Below are positions 1,655 to 35,015 of a stretch of 64,000 bases of DNA, in pieces; position 1 is the stretch's first letter; the number at the start of each line of letters is the position of its first letter. The position numbers and the translations under genes were made by a program. The notes under the pieces were generated by a model that worked only from the letters and a program-made list of their open reading frames with translations, ran no database searches and was not told the DNA's origin. The stretch spans positions 2,080,001-2,144,000 of the forward strand of contig CAWDSK010000006.1 in NCBI GenBank assembly GCA_963804995.1, written 5' to 3'. The stretch comes from an uncultured Acidobacteriota bacterium (GTDB lineage Bacteria; Acidobacteriota; Terriglobia; UBA7540).

Positions 1655-2671
1655 ATGGATAACCTGACTCACACGCTTACGGCGGTGGCCATCAGCCACA
1701 CGGGGCTCAACCGCAAGACCCGATTCGCCACACTCATTGTCATCCTGGCCGCGAACGCTCCTGACCTCGACATACTGACGGGATTTCGGGACAGTGCGAC
1801 GTACCTTAAGTACCACCGCGGCATCACGCATTCCCTCTTAGGCGTCATCGTTCTTGCATTTATTCTGTGGGGTTGCATCTACTGGGTCGGGAAGAGAGTG
1901 CGGCCCAAGCCCCGCCTTCCCCTGAATGCCCGTTGGCTCATGTTGGCAGCGTTGCTGGGAACCGGCAGCCACCTGCTGCTCGATTTTACGAATTCGTACG
2001 GGGTCCGTCCCTTCCTGCCCTTTAGTGGACGCTGGTATGCCTGGGATATCATGTACATCTTCGATCCCCTGCTGCTCCTCCTGCTGGTGCTGGGCCTGGG
2101 AGTGCCCTGGCTGCTGCGTCTGATTTCTGAAGAAGTCGGGGCACGCAAGCCCAACCTCGCACGTGGCGCGATCTTCGCGCTGAGCGCCATGGTCGCGCTT
2201 TGGGGAGTGCGTGCTTTTGCCCACAGCCGCGCCCTGAGCATCCTCGACAGCCGCACGTATTCTGAGCAGAACCCGCAAAGACTCGACGCCTTCCCCTCCC
2301 CAGGAAATCCCCTGGCGTGGACAGGCGTGGTCGAAACGGATGCGGCTTTAAGTGTACTGTCTGTGAACGCGTTGAATTCGGACCAACCCCCCGAGGAAGT
2401 GCGGTCGTTCAAAAAGCCGGAAGCCTCCGCCGCTCTCGAAGCCGCCATGAGGACTCGGACGGGCCGCATCTTCATGGATTTTGCCCGTTTCCCGTGGGGA
2501 GAAGTTGAGGCTAGTGAAGATGGTTTTCTGGTGAGCCTGCGTGACTTGAGATTCTATCGGGGCATGGCGCGCTCCCGCGGGTTCGTCGTCGACGTTGAAC
2601 TCGACAAAGACCTGCGGGTCCGCTCCGAGTCCTTTTCGTTCAACGCTCCACTGCGGCGGGGTGAGGAGTGA
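1655..2671 (+). CDS. metal-dependent hydrolase, inner-membrane YdjM/DUF457 family
   Basis: MDNLTH, APDLD, HRGITHS, SHLLLD..NSYG motifs; several transmembrane segments. Confidence 0.88.
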   Translation: MDNLTHTLTAVAISHTGLNRKTRFATLIVILAANAPDLDILTGFRDSATYLKYHRGITHSLLGVIVLAFILWGCIYWVGKRVRPKPRLPLNARWLMLAALLGTGSHLLLDFTNSYGVRPFLPFSGRWYAWDIMYIFDPLLLLLLVLGLGVPWLLRLISEEVGARKPNLARGAIFALSAMVALWGVRAFAHSRALSILDSRTYSEQNPQRLDAFPSPGNPLAWTGVVETDAALSVLSVNALNSDQPPEEVRSFKKPEASAALEAAMRTRTGRIFMDFARFPWGEVEASEDGFLVSLRDLRFYRGMARSRGFVVDVELDKDLRVRSESFSFNAPLRRGEE

Positions 2672-2700
2672 ATCAGCCATCGGATCATCGCTGGCTGGCG

Positions 2701-4613
2701 GTTGCGGTAGGGATACCGGTTACCCGGTACCCCCCGCACGGATCCGTACGTGCGCTGGTTAGCGCATACGGCTCTTATCTCGGATGTGTGGCGGCGAACC
2801 GTTGGGATGGCCAAGGATGCACAACGTGCGGAGCAGGCAACCAGCAGGCCGCAAGCTTCCCCAGTCGGTCCCAGTTGAGGCGGTGGCGTTGACTGCGTTG
2901 ACGCAGTTGTGTTCGCCACAGTCGGGTCAACCGTTCCCGAAAGATTCGCAGGCGGTTGAGGTTTCCCGGTACCGCGTGATAGTTGAAGTAGCCTTGCACG
3001 ACCGACCGGAGCCATTTACCCGTATCCGCGATGGGATCGTGCCGACGCTGCCGGAGTTGTTGCTTGAGTTCCTGCAACTTCCCCCGCAGGCGCTTGCTGA
3101 TCGTCTTCCGCTTCACGGTAAATTGCCCCCTCCGGTTCTTCCCGCTGATATGCGTGAAGCCCAGAAAGTCGAACGTCTCCGGCTTACCTTCTCCTCTCCG
3201 TTTCCGGTAAAGTTCGGCAAACGGCCCGAACTCGATCCGGCGCGTTTTGTCAGGATGCAGTTCCAATCCAAACTTCCCCACCCGCTCCCGGAAATCCTCC
3301 AGAAAGCGGTCGGCTTCCGTCTGCGATTGGAATCCAAGGACCGTATCGTCGGCATACCGCACCACGACCACGTCTCCCCGGGCGTGCTTCTTGCGCCACG
3401 CCTGCACCCACAGGTCAAAGACGTAGTGCAGATAGATATTCGCCAGCAGGGGCGAGACCACCGCCCCTTGTGGCGTACCCATCTCCGTCTCCGACCATTC
3501 GCCTTCCTCCCTCACCCCGGCTTTCAGCCATTTCTGGATGAGCCGGAGAATCCGGGGGTCGGCGACGCGATGCTGCACGAACTTGAGCATCCATTCGTGG
3601 GATATCGAATCGAAAAATCCACGAATGTCCGCGTCAAGAACGTAGTTCACGTGCTTCACCGTGAGCGCGTACGAGAGCGCGTCCAGCGCTTGATGCTGGC
3701 TGCATCCCGGTCGAAAGCCATACGAGAAGCCCAGAAAGTCTTCCTCGTAAATCGCCTTGAGGATGGTGACCACGGCCTGTTGGACGATCTTGTCCTCCAG
3801 TGCCGCAACCCCCAACGGACGTTGCCGCCCGTCGCCTTTCGGGATATACGCCCTTCGCGAGGGCTTCGCTCGGAATGCTCCGCGGTGGACCCGGCTGTGC
3901 AGATCGACGAGTCGACCTTCCAGCCCGCTTTCATACTCCTGCCACGTCATGCCGTCTACTCCCGGTGCAGCTTTTCGCTTCAAGGCGTAAAAGCTTTCCC
4001 GCAGCAGATCGACCGTTAAGTGGTGGAGCAAGGCCGTGAACTTCATCTCCCTGTGTTCCTTCGCGGCTTTCCGCACACCCGCGAGTCCCTGGGACACGCG
4101 TGCCCCGCTCTGTGTCGGGTGCGTGTTAGGCCAACGGGTGTTCTCCTTGATCAGCGGCCTTCCCTCCTCATTCTCCGCCAACGGCTTCCCGTCTTTGTTC
4201 AAATGATTCATCGGTACTGTTCCGCTGTCCGACTCCTCGAAAGCGTGCAGGCGGGCTGTACGGCCATCGCCTTTTCCCGCCGTCCGGCCACGATCTACGG
4301 CGGCCGGCGCCTCCGAGGTCTCCCGGTTCTCGTGCAGAAAGTGTCTAGGCGTGTCTGGGGTCTACGACTACGCAGGACTGTGCCGGAACTCGCGTTGGCG
4401 TCCCGGCCTCATGTTGCCTTCCGTTTAGTCTGAAAACGTCGGCGTCCTGATTGGACATTTTCGAAGCTCAATACCCAGCCCACCTATTCCCCTGTTTACG
4501 CTTCACCGTGCGCCTCACGACGCCCAGCGCAAAACTCGGGGCCGAGTGGATCGCTGCTCCTTCCTCGTGAGAAATTTTCATTCTCTGCTTTCTGCCGGTT
4601 TATCCCGGCGCAC
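2701..4613 (-). mobile_element. group II intron 1 (IIB-type), apparently intact, 1913 nt
   Basis: 5' end GTGCG at 4613; domain V GAGCCGTATGCGCTAACCAGCGCACGTACGGATC (AGC triad) and domain VI ending CCCTACCGCAAC at 2701; encodes an RT. Confidence 0.95.
2775..4211 (-). CDS. ltrA: group II intron reverse transcriptase/maturase, no endonuclease domain
   Basis: APGVDG, RPLG, SYGFRPG, GTPQG..SPLLANIYL, RYADD and FDFLGFT motifs; X/maturase domain; no C-terminal HNH. Confidence 0.97.
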   Translation of the reverse strand: MNHLNKDGKPLAENEEGRPLIKENTRWPNTHPTQSGARVSQGLAGVRKAAKEHREMKFTALLHHLTVDLLRESFYALKRKAAPGVDGMTWQEYESGLEGRLVDLHSRVHRGAFRAKPSRRAYIPKGDGRQRPLGVAALEDKIVQQAVVTILKAIYEEDFLGFSYGFRPGCSQHQALDALSYALTVKHVNYVLDADIRGFFDSISHEWMLKFVQHRVADPRILRLIQKWLKAGVREEGEWSETEMGTPQGAVVSPLLANIYLHYVFDLWVQAWRKKHARGDVVVVRYADDTVLGFQSQTEADRFLEDFRERVGKFGLELHPDKTRRIEFGPFAELYRKRRGEGKPETFDFLGFTHISGKNRRGQFTVKRKTISKRLRGKLQELKQQLRQRRHDPIADTGKWLRSVVQGYFNYHAVPGNLNRLRIFRERLTRLWRTQLRQRSQRHRLNWDRLGKLAACWLPAPHVVHPWPSQRFAATHPR

Positions 4614-4838
4614 CAGACCCTAGTTCTTGGGGGTCTGCGATGCCCTGAAGGGACAGGTAAGAGCTGATAACTCATCCCCGTGGTGATGAATTGCTGGAGA
4701 CCAGGACTGTAAGTGGGTTTCGGAATTCTACTGGAGAACTTATCTCAAGATTGACCTTTGGGAATAGTTTCCCTTTGGGACATCGCAGACCCCAAGGTAC
4801 AGGGGTCTGCGCCATCCAGCGGCTTCTTCATTGGCTTC

Positions 4839-5441
4839 TTAGATGACCTGATTTGCAGAAGACCGGCGCTTCCACCACCGGGTAATCAGGGCAAGAGCGA
4901 TGACCAGGACCACCGCGGTCAATGACGCCCGGCCCAAATTGTGACGCAAGTAATCCTGCGCCTGGAGGCCATAGCGCGCGCCCAGCCAGGCATCCGCGCC
5001 AAACCTCAGACCGCGGCCTACCAGGAGCGCCAGCCCAAAACGCAGAGCGTTGACGCGCAGCACGCCGGCGGTGAGAATGAACACCTTCAGGGGCGCCGGT
5101 GGAGGCAGCAGCGCCGCCACCAGAACCGCCACGAAATCGTTCCGCTTGAGCCAGCGCTGAGCGAAGGTGACGGACAGCGGGGTGGTCTTGCGGAAAAACA
5201 ATTTCCCGCCGCCGCGTGCGATCGAATAAAGGACATACGCCCCGCCCATCGAGCCCAGGGTGCTGGCGAGGGCGTAAACGGGCCACCAAGCCGGGCGCTT
5301 GCTGGCCAACACGATCAAGGCCAAATCATTCACGCCAGGAAAGGGAACGAGCGAGGAATCAAGAAACGACATCACGAACAATCCCCATCCCCCGTAGAGG
5401 ACCAGGATCTGACCGAGTTTGGCGGAGAGTGACTTCAGCAT
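4839..5441 (-). CDS. DedA/VTT (YqaA-like) membrane protein
   Basis: GLFVMSFLDSS, STLGSMGG, PPPAPLKVF and GRGLRF motifs. Confidence 0.85.
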   Translation of the reverse strand: MLKSLSAKLGQILVLYGGWGLFVMSFLDSSLVPFPGVNDLALIVLASKRPAWWPVYALASTLGSMGGAYVLYSIARGGGKLFFRKTTPLSVTFAQRWLKRNDFVAVLVAALLPPPAPLKVFILTAGVLRVNALRFGLALLVGRGLRFGADAWLGARYGLQAQDYLRHNLGRASLTAVVLVIALALITRWWKRRSSANQVI

Positions 5442-7815: not shown

Positions 7816-7824
7816 GAGAGGATC

Positions 7825-8022
7825 GAAGTTAGAAGTTAGGAGCTAGGAGTCAGAAGCTAGAACTTAGAAACTGGAATCCAGAACTCAGGATTCAGAAACG
7901 AGCGGCGCAGATCATTCGGACCGGCGCAAATTCTCGCCGTCTAAAATGACGAGGAAACCGGGGGGCAAAGGCAGGCGGGATGCTTGCATTCTAGCTCCTA
8001 ACTCCTGGCTCCTAACTTCTAG
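7825..8022. repeat. inverted 7-bp tandem arrays between pdhB and pdhC
   Basis: About 10 TAGAAGT/TAGGAGC-type heptamers at 7825-7897 and about 5 reverse-complement units at 7989-8022. Confidence 0.85.
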
Positions 8023-8058
8023 ATCCCTGCTCCTTTACTTACAAAATGAGGGTTCCCA

Positions 8059-11792: not shown

Positions 11793-11998
11793 CTGGCGCA
11801 GACCCCGGCTCTTTGGGGTCTGCGATGCCACGAAGAGGCAGTGATGAATTGCGCGTCACACGAGGGGTATAGAATTGTCGTTAGGTGGACGATAAATGCG
11901 CTTGTAGAAGCGTATGGCTCGTTTCACTCTAAACACTGGCCGGGATGGTGTCCATGCGGGACATCGCAGACCCCCAAGAACCGGGGTCTGCGCCAGCC
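11793..11998. repeat. intact (intron-free) family D REPIN
   Basis: CTGGCGCAGACCCC..GGGGTCTGCGATG / spacer / CATCGCAGACCCC..GGGGTCTGCGCCAGCC. Confidence 0.88.
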
Positions 11999-16353: not shown

Positions 16354-16629
16354 GTGAGTTACCTTTAGGTGAATTCAGCCGAACACTATCCTCTGGCAGT
16401 TTGCTGATTCCGGTCGCGCCGGTCACCGATTCCAAGGGGATTGCCGGTCGCGAGCCTACCAGCACCGGCGGCAGAATAGTGGCTGAACAGACCGGGTGAG
16501 TCAACCTGATTCGGCAGGGATAGAATAAGGAAGACTTTCAGCAAGGGTAGCCCAGATCGCTCCATGAGGAGAAATCCCTCCTAGCTTCTAACTTCTCACT
16601 CCTTCGCTTCTGCCCTTCCCGTGGGCACT

Positions 16630-19522: not shown

Positions 19523-19745
19523 CGTCGGCAGGGCCGACTTCAGGGCACCCATGAGGGGCCCCTACGGTCTGGTAGCCACGGTCAGCGTTTTCCTGACCGT
19601 GGGCCTTTCTCACGCGCAATACCACAGCCACATTTGACCAGGGGTTTTGGGATCAAAGGAAAATCCCACGGACAGAGAAGCACTGTCCGTGGCTACCCCC
19701 TCGTCGGCAGGGCCGACCTCCGGGCACCCATGAGGGGCCCCTACG
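19523..19745. repeat. GGTAGCCACGG REPIN (19571-19697) flanked by 44-bp direct repeats ending CCCCTACG
   Basis: Direct repeats at 19523-19566 and 19702-19745 (2 mismatches); REPIN homologue at 48239-48429. Confidence 0.85.
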
Positions 19746-33335: not shown

Positions 33336-33750
33336 CTCAGCCCTCCACATCTGATGCATCAAAAGGCGCCAAACGCCCACTTTTTTTGGGTTCCAATTTG
33401 CCCCTGCCGCTTTCCGATTCCCTGCTGATTCCACCTTGGTGGCGCACTCGGAGCATCTTTCAAGGGAGTACCCATGCTTGCGTAGTGGTGCAGTTTGATG
33501 TAGAGGCGGCGGCATTCATCCAGATCCGGTCGGGACGCCGCCATTTGGCAAGGTGAACTCGCCGCTACAACATCAAACTACACCACTACCCGCGCTTGAT
33601 ATTGTTTGCGTCTTCCAGGGCTTGTGCTTCCAAATTCTGGAGCGCGGTAGCGCCTCTCGCATCTCAGAGAGTCTGCGGCTTTCCGGTCTTCCGCATTGAT
33701 AGAAATGTGAACGCGCTTCCAGCTTGAAGCCCCAACGGGGCGACCTACCA

Positions 33751-35015
33751 ATAGGGGTAGGGAGACGCGATTGGATTCGGTCCCCCTCCCTCCGAACCGG
33801 ACAGGCGGATTTCCCGCATCCGGCTCTCCAGTCGGTGGTTTTACCTCCGAGAGGATGGACGGACCGAGTCATGGGCGGCGACCAGAGAGAACAGCCCCTG
33901 CTCGGCAAAGAAGGCATTAGGTCAGCGGTGATGGTCGGTGCCGCGGCCTCGGCCCGGGCGTCCCTGGCGGTAGCGCAAGATGCTACGCAGCCGCATGCGG
34001 ACCCAGGAATCCAAGACCTCGAACGCGAAACGACAACTGTGCTGAAAATACTCGAACCAGCCTCGCAGCGTACGGTTCACGTCGGTGAGGATGGCCGCCC
34101 AGCTCTGCCCGGAGCGCCGTCTGTACCACCCGGTCACGCACCGTCGGAATCCCCAAGGGTCGCTTTTCTTTGCTCCCCAATTTGCGGATCCAGTGACGCC
34201 GTATCGCCTGCGGGCGATAGCTACCGTCCGCGAGCGACCGCGAGAGCTTTTCCAGGTTCGCTTCCAGGTGGCGCTCGAACTCTTCCACCGTCACGTGGTC
34301 TACACCGGCGGCTCCCTCGTTGGCCTTCACGCGAGCGAAGGCTTGCCGCAAAGTCGGCAGAGCGCAGACCTTATCCATCAGGCTGTACCACCTGCTTCCT
34401 TTCACTCCCTGTTCGAGAGCCGTCAACATCCGTTCCGTCCCAACCTCGGCTTCGACCCAGGCCCATCGAGCCTGAATCTCTCCGGCGGGGGTAGCTCGTT
34501 TTCCGAGCACTCCGTCCGGGGGGGCTTGCGGTGGTTTGTCCGTCACGTCTCCACCTTCCTGCGCTCCCTTCGCTCCATGGCCGTTACGCCACTTCTTCGC
34601 TACTATGGGCGCGGTGACTCCGGCGTGCACGCGCTCTTCCCGGCCCTTTCCAGGCGGCGGGGGCGGCTCTTCTACACGCCGGTCTCCCTGATTCACGCCA
34701 CCGGCCTTCCGGCCATTCTGTCTCCAATCACCTGCGGGCGCTCCGTCTCACCAAGGCACGTTACCTGTGGGTGGATCGGACCAAGACGGCTTCCCTCTAT
34801 GGGTTGTGCTCCCTCCGGGAACTCGGGGCTTCGTCCTCAGCTGGCAGACTCGCCGCTCCCCGCCGGCCGAATCGAGTTTCTTATCGTACGGACTGGCCGT
34901 TCACCTCCTGCTGCTCTCCACCCCGCCTCGCGGCGACGCAGTTGCAGTCGGTTTCAAGTTACGTTGACTTGGAGAGGACTTCCACCTCTCCGGTCGATGG
35001 CGCTTTCAGGCGCAC
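33751..35015 (-). mobile_element. group II intron 2 (IIB-type), internally deleted, 1265 nt
   Basis: 5' GTGCG at 35015; domain V GAGCCGGATGCGGGAAATCCGCCTGTCCGGTTC; domain VI ending CCCTACCCCTAT at 33751. Confidence 0.92.
33841..34546 (-). pseudogene. ltrA: truncated intron RT/maturase (central RT blocks including YADD deleted, frameshift, nonsense codon)
   Basis: RT0-2 (WYSLMDKV, GAAGVD, RPLGIPTVRDR) fused out of frame to the X domain (NRTLRGWFEYF); TGA where W is expected at 33922. Confidence 0.9.

Follow-up and report, generated by a model that had tools for sequence, protein, structure and literature searches.

Bacterial class E of the group II introns includes the disrupted intron of pRmeGR4b of Sinorhizobium meliloti (PMC5894124). 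The class relies on exon-binding site 1 (EBS1) and has a weak EBS2 (PMC3753933), and the accessible text of a broader survey credits it with expansions in certain genomes and with a moderate strand bias, in a ratio of 2 to 5 (PMC8919778). Here we describe intron 1, a class E intron located in a 64,000-nucleotide stretch of DNA, called the window throughout (positions 2,080,001 to 2,144,000 of contig CAWDSK010000006.1, assembly GCA_963804995.1), from an uncultured Acidobacteriota bacterium of the lineage UBA7540. Its near-identical copies in this genome sit in one arm of a repetitive extragenic palindromic (REP) hairpin probably spread by REP-associated tyrosine transposases (RAYTs). They probably result from a recent burst of ordinary retrohoming, in which an endonuclease-less intron uses pairing between its EBSs and the intron-binding sites (IBSs) of the exons and enters the lagging-strand template.

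The nearest class E introns, S.me.I4 (S. meliloti GR4 pRmeGR4b) and Cl.be.I2, resemble intron 1 in the match to Rfam model RF02005, the lack of an endonuclease, the reliance on EBS1 and, for pRmeGR4b, 57% protein identity, but their accessible descriptions mention no REP target or burst comparable to those of intron 1, and its strand bias, 35:1, contrasts with that of class E at large (PMC8919778). The class D introns RmInt1 and RmInt2 of S. meliloti are likewise endonuclease-less, prefer the lagging-strand template and have distal bases read by the protein (PMC4615759, PMC5894124). As far as these sources describe it, RmInt2 targets the inverted repeats of ISRm17, which gives it a target on either strand, and it differs from intron 1 in its class, in its target at the end of an insertion sequence and in its seven copies, as against 40 in a self-pairing REP stem. 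Class C introns such as B.h.I1, found at terminators and attC sites, also insert at hairpins on single-stranded DNA (ssDNA) and reach high copy number (PMC1702495, PMC4424553, PMC8919778). However, they are described as inserting 3 to 11 nucleotides after the stem-loop (PMC1702495), whereas intron 1 has a 6-nucleotide EBS1, a short covarying EBS2 and an IBS1 that belongs to the stem itself, ending 2 bp short of the foot.

REPs are also the landing sites of ISPpu9, ISPpu10, ISPsy8 and ISPa11, but these elements move as DNA. Among the group II introns of Pseudomonas putida KT2440, two of nine (22%) are REP associated according to a published table, the accessible text giving no mechanism (PMC1525189), compared with 37 of 37 here. 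The 28 close intron copies of Thermosynechococcus elongatus amount to about 1.3% of its genome (PMC2882425); in the accessible account their target specificity has diverged and heat opens the DNA, whereas all copies of intron 1 share one unchanged EBS1. A literature search, outside of which most subscription journals lay, returned no paper on a REP-specialized group II intron, and the accessible parts of PMC7923331, PMC12584367 and PMC8934634 have no bearing on REP targeting. The parts of the system are textbook; what is unusual is their combination, a 40-copy class E intron on a RAYT-associated REP, its insertions almost absolutely strand-bound and its binding site contained in the stem.

A class E intron with an intact protein

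The intron comprises the following parts.

2701 to 4613, minus strand: group II intron of bacterial class E, 1913 nucleotides (RF02005, ends, copies, likeness to pRmeGR4b)
2775 to 4211, minus strand: reverse transcriptase (RT)/maturase of 478 amino acids with a YADD motif (PF00078 as sole Pfam match; TIGR04416 at 342.9 bits, cut-off 300)
2741 to 2774, minus strand: domain V with an AGC triad and a non-GNRA loop (fold, coordinates, loops of relatives)
2703 to 2739, minus strand: domain VI, in which the A at 2708, eight bases before the intron 3' end, is unpaired (fold)

Read on the minus strand, the intron starts with GTGCG at 4613 and ends with AAC at 2701, and it displays the group II hallmarks, namely, GUGYG and AY ends and domains I to VI, with a catalytic domain V and a bulged A in domain VI. 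In the folded model the unpaired A at 2708 is likely the branch point, and the fold of the 100-nucleotide 3' end had a z score of -3.67. The RNA scored 170 bits against RF02005, and RF00029 remained below its gathering score. The RT open reading frame (ORF) is located in domain IV and stops directly before domain V, and Pfam detected no endonuclease domain in the protein (RVT_1 only).

In pairwise comparisons, the protein was 57% identical to that of the disrupted pRmeGR4b intron, compared with 35% for the other intron of pRmeGR4b. RF02005 matched the window intron, the loci L019 and L023 and the pRmeGR4b reference intron, the second pRmeGR4b intron matching RF01999. On the basis of this pairwise protein identity and RNA-model match to the pRmeGR4b class E intron, we file the window intron as class E; the 6-nucleotide EBS1, the EBS2 signal and the class E likeness all set it apart from class C. 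Its closest named relatives are Acidobacteriota. In the window intron and the parsed relatives, domain V carries a UAAYCA-like or UAGCUA-like loop in place of GNRA, and this lineage may have a different tetraloop-receptor contact.

Forty copies at one bond of a REP hairpin

A first-pass annotation of the window had observed that removal of positions 2701 to 4613 restores CTGGCG/CAGACCC (slashes mark the insertion bond), as in the intron-free copy at 11793, and this junction was reproduced. The exons are as follows.

4614 to 4639, minus strand: 5' exon, the bulk of the split REP hairpin, with IBS1 GGTCTG at 4619 to 4614 in its 3' arm (junction, copies, fold)
2695 to 2700, minus strand: 3' exon, the foot of the split REP, consisting of the stem CG and the complement of the CTGG guide-like tetramer (junction)

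The genome harbors 40 copies with 99.6 to 100% identity, 38 of them full and two cut by contig ends, which make up about 1% of its DNA; the full copies differ by a mean of 3.5 nucleotides, and the protein is intact in 37 of the 38. The annotation had taken the junction for a genuine homing site, in agreement with the finding that all 37 copies with both flanks lie at a single bond, RGTCYG/CGCYA, where IBS1 is GGTCTG in 32, GGTCCG in four and AGTCTG in one. The other three copies showed REP sequence on every visible side, so that a REP is found at 40 of 40, well above any chance expectation. Copies at unrelated sites, which would have spoken against homing, did not appear, since every near-identical copy with a visible flank was in a REP. 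Insertion takes place 2 bp from the hairpin foot, and the left arm is intact in 34 cases and carries one mismatch in three. The 37 filled REPs fall into two subfamilies and are different copies with unrelated outer flanks; only two of the insertions lie inside long ORFs.

Among the 38 full copies, nine shared single nucleotide polymorphisms (SNPs) occur in mosaic combinations, with all four gametes in 27 of 36 pairs, for which gene conversion, switching of templates and an artefact of polishing are candidate causes. The same genome also contains more distant relatives (C1:206552, C1:441114, C2:652257, C5:460087, C6:842676 and C9:36920), which are 69 to 90% identical over short stretches and whose flanks, wherever a true end can be recognized, are not REPs.

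The repeat that the annotation had called family D is, from its sequence, a RAYT-associated REP, and it extends beyond the CTGG type of the window to two subfamilies. On the strand opposite to the target, the tetramer before the hairpin is GTAG or, in the subfamily of the window, CTGG, and hairpins of the two types number several hundred in the genome, all variants counted. CTGG differs from the canonical guide tetramer GT[AG]G given among the REP recognition features (PMC6006769). Two genes, L011 and L012, matched NF047646 (REP-associated tyrosine transposase) with 117 and 112 bits (cut-off, 80); each is flanked by inverted copies of the target REP, and one flanking REP of each holds the intron. 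In a genome scan, the target REP type lay within 1.5 kb of 3 of 14 Y1 matches. The window contains these further parts of the system.

4676 to 4783, minus strand: residual RAYT gene 5' end with its upstream region, between two REPs (match to L011)
4784 to 4814, plus strand: partner REP, empty, with its target at 4809/4810 in the disfavoured orientation
11793 to 11824, minus strand: empty REP with its target at 11798/11799 in the favoured orientation and a weak IBS2
11965 to 11995, plus strand: empty REP with its target at 11990/11991 in the disfavoured orientation

The RAYT remnant is 72% identical to L011 over 147 nucleotides (E = 2e-17; peptide match, E = 0.011). By this match, positions 4614 to 4814 are an internally deleted REP-RAYT unit, composed of a REP, the RAYT 5' remnant and a second REP. 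The unit at 11793 to 11995 is built alike, with a weaker RAYT trace.

Pairing of the intron with its target

The elements assigned to target pairing are listed below.

4422 to 4438, minus strand: ID3 stem-loop with EBS1, CAGACU, at 4432 to 4427 (minimum free energy [MFE] fold, Rfam alignment, covariation, occupancy)
4455 to 4457, minus strand: short candidate EBS2, UGU, facing -9 to -11 of the exon (3-bp covariation, C-10)
4421, minus strand: candidate EBS3, the G of the coordination loop, opposite C+1 (C+1 in 37 of 37 targets)

The ID3 stem CGTTT-TCAGACT-AAACG (4438 to 4422), followed by GAAGGC, appeared both in the unconstrained MFE fold and in the RF02005 alignment, so that the annotation had placed this stem-loop and its displayed CAGACT correctly. 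The pairing of EBS1 with GGTCTG that it had proposed, with five Watson-Crick pairs and one G:U pair, agrees with covariation among related introns. Of 80 sequences (the window and 79 loci), parsing succeeded for 53, of which 50 included sufficient exon; the 27 loci that failed to parse were left out, and the mis-parsed L018 was kept, which pulls the mean down. Matching each ID3 loop to its own exon end gave a mean score of 5.87, compared with 2.90 for shuffled pairs (standard deviation, 0.19) and 3.6 for the best of 1000 shuffles, in a set of kin that are not independent and comprise 30 distinct loops and 26 distinct exon ends. The pairing came nearly always from the same ID3 loop offset. Folding, together with covariation in these 50 introns, thus confirmed CAGACU as EBS1. 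In congeners, an EBS1 reading CGGACU accompanies GGTCCG-type REPs and one reading CAGACC accompanies GGTCTG.

For the remaining contacts, which the annotation had singled out for checking, the outcome was divided. The short EBS2 covaried with its target: over 34 intron types, taking the better of two registers, the score was 2.69 versus 1.85 when shuffled, which none of 2000 shuffles attained, and C occupies -10 in 36 of 37 targets. EBS3, the position of which we take to be 4421 by analogy with IIB introns, faces C+1 in 27 of 33 intron types; because its G is unchanged in the six listed relatives with another +1 base, it shows no covariation and is compatible with C+1 rather than supported by it. 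Distal bases are also conserved at the targets, namely, A-15 (35 of 37), A-14 (34 of 37) and G+2, C+3 and A+5 (37 of 37 each).

Orientation and sequence of the filled sites

Windowed GC skew proved noisy, with 32 and 34 of 40 copies consistent, and was replaced by contig-level replichores based on cumulative skew, dnaA, 16S and rplB. Contig C9, with four copies, was left out. Since replichores were assigned once the copy orientations were known, both versions are given. The dnaA gene at C2:124 kb adjoins the skew minimum at 118 kb, and on C6, 16S and rplB lie on the minus strand, as the C6 skew predicts. Of the 36 assignable copies, 35 are oriented with the fork, and on C2 the strand of the five copies changes at dnaA and the skew minimum.

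The genome-wide count of occupied and empty repeats that the annotation had suggested revealed the same rule: 29 of 57 matching REP sites were filled in the orientation of the fork versus 1 of 77 against it. With windowed skew, 28 of 57 GGTCTG hairpin sites were filled with the G-rich strand versus 4 of 85 against it. Transcription was considered as the cause of the strand bias and rejected, the direction of the upstream gene having no effect (16 of 31 versus 8 of 16). The three GGGTCTG/CGCCA targets that the annotation had reported as empty, at 4809/4810 (plus strand), 11798/11799 (minus strand) and 11990/11991 (plus strand), are indeed unoccupied, but of these only 11798/11799 is oriented with the fork, both plus-strand sites having the orientation that is hardly ever filled. 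Outside C9, 28 favourable matching sites are empty, and these sites, the intact protein and the near-identity of the copies support the annotation's further suggestion that the intron could still spread, mobility being read here from sequence.

Occupancy also depends on the target sequence. On the favoured strand, a single EBS1 mismatch at -2, in a compensated GGTCCG stem with the same IBS2, reduced filling to 3 of 27 sites versus 24 of 44 (P = 3e-4). The opposite arm of the hairpin, which also reads GGTCTG/CG, was filled in 0 of 98 cases, 70 of them favourably oriented; C-10 is absent from all of these sites, and from +3 on they have a different 3' exon. In total, 1404 GGTCTG/C sites are empty, including the 98 on opposite arms, showing that the six-base match is insufficient. 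A multi-copy element (11 identical copies listed; C1:515297, C2:159331 and others) carries GGTCTG/CGCCA without the hairpin or C-10 and is never invaded.

Related introns in other genomes

An intron match was found in 27 of 61 genomes searched, including 19 of 28 within the genus, and the nearest introns likewise lie in REP arms. In G002, the one copy seen has EBS1 CAGACU at AGTCTG. The six copies of G005 have CGGACU at GGGCCG (four), GGCCCG (one) and GGTCCG (one), and the three of G026 have CAGACC at GGTCTG, one each in a full REP, next to another 3' exon and in a weak fold. A contig from an unrelated sediment run passes from the intron 5' end into a GTAG-type REP, and in one RNA run the contigs with intron matches are mostly 90 to 95% identical to it, that is, relatives.

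In the wider clade, 45 of 48 scored exon junctions fold weakly (-6.8 to 0 kcal/mol), and A-14 is common to 25 of 34 intron types. A tree of 70 domain I sequences contains a 21-row clade (support, 91/93) with hairpin targets in several branches, a pattern that does not separate a single from a repeated origin.

Tuning of EBS1 to whichever REP variant is most frequent in a species was considered and rejected, as it holds in one of three genomes: the empty sites of G005 (32 GGDCCG versus 8 GGTCTG) fit its EBS1, yet in G000, the genome of intron 1 (199 versus 99), and G026 (113 versus 23) EBS1 matches GGTCTG. L026 and L139 to L143 were dropped as non-hairpin controls, since a wider fold puts several of them in another hairpin family.

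ORF-less versions of about 640 to 650 nucleotides (L134 and L135 in G006, L137 in G005 and L143 in G018) lie in the arms of REPs or other hairpins in the same register and are probably mobilized in trans. Noncanonical 5' ends occur as well, namely, GAAAGCG in L134 to L143 and L026, GTAAGCG in L016, and GAGCG in L015, L028, L036 and L057; starts other than GTGCG were placed by the best EBS1 pairing.

Probable retrohoming and its alternatives

At the level of sequence, we regard as established the intron with its intact protein, the single insertion bond, EBS1 with a short EBS2, and the strand rule. By analogy with RmInt1-type introns, the RNA would splice out with its protein, and this ribonucleoprotein (RNP) would reverse-splice into the single-stranded lagging-strand template at the fork. 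EBS1 would pair with -6 to -1, the three-base EBS2 with -9 to -11 and EBS3 with +1, the protein would read the distal A-15, A-14, G+2, C+3 and A+5, as RmInt1 and RmInt2 proteins do with distal bases, and the nascent lagging strand would prime reverse transcription. The hairpin fold would be incidental, or would be opened for pairing by single-stranded DNA-binding protein or by the intron protein. These steps draw on the accessible accounts of RmInt1 and RmInt2 (PMC5894124, PMC4615759, PMC4424553). Since REPs occur in large numbers between genes and in either orientation, insertions would be cheap, and about half of the usable sites are now filled.

Several observations weigh against this account. 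Folding predicts that the stem holds IBS1 base paired, with -10.1 kcal/mol for the hairpin of the 5' exon RNA compared with -6.3 kcal/mol for the EBS1-IBS1 pairing. The IBS2 effect on occupancy within the genome was weak (P = 0.015 in one test and 0.36 with replichores), and AGTCTG hairpins, which match EBS1 perfectly, were filled in only 1 of 8 cases. No insertion was found outside hairpins: the favoured-strand GGTCTG/CGCYA sites lacking the left arm were filled in 0 of 14 cases versus 29 of 57 (P = 4e-4). As a good IBS2 is present at just 1 of these 14, sequence is confounded with structure, and genome statistics cannot separate them. Outside hairpins, IBS1, IBS2 and C+1 occur together at 160 empty sites, of which 18 are favourably oriented and outside long ORFs. 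Several neighbors within the 21-row clade, which includes ORF-less introns, sit in hairpins, some of another family. Finally, no exon-joined or empty-allele contig was found in three DNA runs and one RNA run, whose contigs lacked the flanks of this locus. To account for the occupancy of the sites, more than the three pairings is needed, be it distal bases read by the protein, the hairpin or selection.

The hairpin is given the leading part in structure-assisted targeting, which we consider possible but rather unlikely. EBS1 is nearly a copy of the REP left arm and IBS1 lies in the stem, so that EBS1 and the left arm compete. The RNP would dock on the ssDNA hairpin, EBS1 would displace the left arm, and the hairpin would supply the specificity that a long EBS2 otherwise gives. 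Such a mode is reminiscent of class C, except that here the stem contains the binding site. Retention of a left arm with at most one mismatch in 37 of 37 targets, an EBS2 of only about 3 bp, the 14 unfilled non-hairpin sites and the 18 favourable intergenic empty ones would all fit, as would the related introns in G005, G006, G018 and L016, which occupy hairpin arms in an identical register, the hairpins belonging to two or more repeat families. Filled sites also tended to have slightly stronger stems (P = 0.054), but sites with one arm mismatch were filled as often as perfect ones (2 of 5 versus 26 of 52), one copy of G000 lies in a stem of only -4.6 kcal/mol, and congener copies lie in weak or broken hairpins (L130, -4.2 kcal/mol; L133, -6.1 kcal/mol with a long loop). 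In addition, the opposite arm of the same hairpins is never used, most of the clade has unstructured targets, and the abundance and harmlessness of REPs alone would enrich hairpin targets. Taken further, this reading would make of these Acidobacteriota introns a class E subclade with hairpin-invading targeting distinct from class C, in which EBS1 mimics the left arm of the REP and displaces it on the lagging-strand template, and the intron parasitizes the RAYT-REP system, retuning EBS1 to stem variants and splitting the REP by the guide tetramer that RAYTs need; we offer this as a still more tentative suggestion.

Passive spread, that is, entry into one or a few REPs followed by RAYT-driven REP movement, tandem duplication or gene conversion, is very improbable. 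It could account for the few copies in tandem repeat units (the end of C6 and C7), the two copies in REPs beside intact RAYT genes and the mosaic SNPs with their 27 of 36 pairs failing the four-gamete test. However, the loops and outer flanks differ among copies, which span two REP subfamilies and three IBS1 variants and thereby largely refute it, occupancy follows the EBS1 match and fork direction, and the insertion splits the stem adjoining the guide tetramer, a feature that RAYTs need (PMC6006769, in its accessible part), and would presumably block RAYT-driven movement. That a repeat-confused long-read metagenome assembly inflated the copy number or misplaced copies is scarcely credible, for although polishing with mis-mapped reads could generate mosaic SNPs and a copy lies at or next to the end of several contigs, the flanks of every junction restore a different REP with base precision, no assembler can produce the strand rule with its switch at the origin, and congener genomes show the same type of junction with their own EBS1. 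Retrohoming by EBS-IBS pairing into the lagging-strand template thus remains the probable origin of the copies.

Other features of the window and genome

Intron 1 lies between two convergent genes.

1655 to 2671, plus strand: gene of the YdjM family, converging on the intron 3' end (PF04307)
4839 to 5441, minus strand: VTT-domain-like membrane protein gene, upstream of the intron and co-oriented with it (PF09335, E = 1e-7, just under the cut-off)

The latter gene is a possible source of read-through into the intron. The window also contains a degraded second group II intron of another class at about 33750 to 34700 on the minus strand, with an RF00029 match at 33751 to 33828 and RT fragments in separate ORFs. 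A second repeat family of 7-base units (AGAAGTT/AGGAGCT type) forms inverted intergenic clusters at 1513 to 1653, 7818 to 8035 and 16577 to 16603, and a third, paired repeat at 19523 to 19745 has 44-nucleotide direct copies around a 39-nucleotide inverted pair. Elsewhere in the genome, 26 tRNA genes are arrayed in about 4 kb (C5:1304904-1309125).

Significance

With more than 100 near-identical targets that differ in orientation or in a single base pair, this genome amounts to a natural homing experiment, from which an almost absolute lagging-template rule and a measured cost of one EBS1 mismatch were obtained. It also poses a puzzle, namely, how splicing and insertion of an intron can proceed when its binding site is held in a GC-rich stem. 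For the host, a soil-type bacterium, the REP offers a landing pad that is abundant and apparently harmless, and the forty identical 1.9-kb copies are substrates for rearrangement. For group II introns, the system illustrates one route past the usual limit of a few copies, in which the target is a repeat that another mobile system appears to renew in harmless intergenic places.

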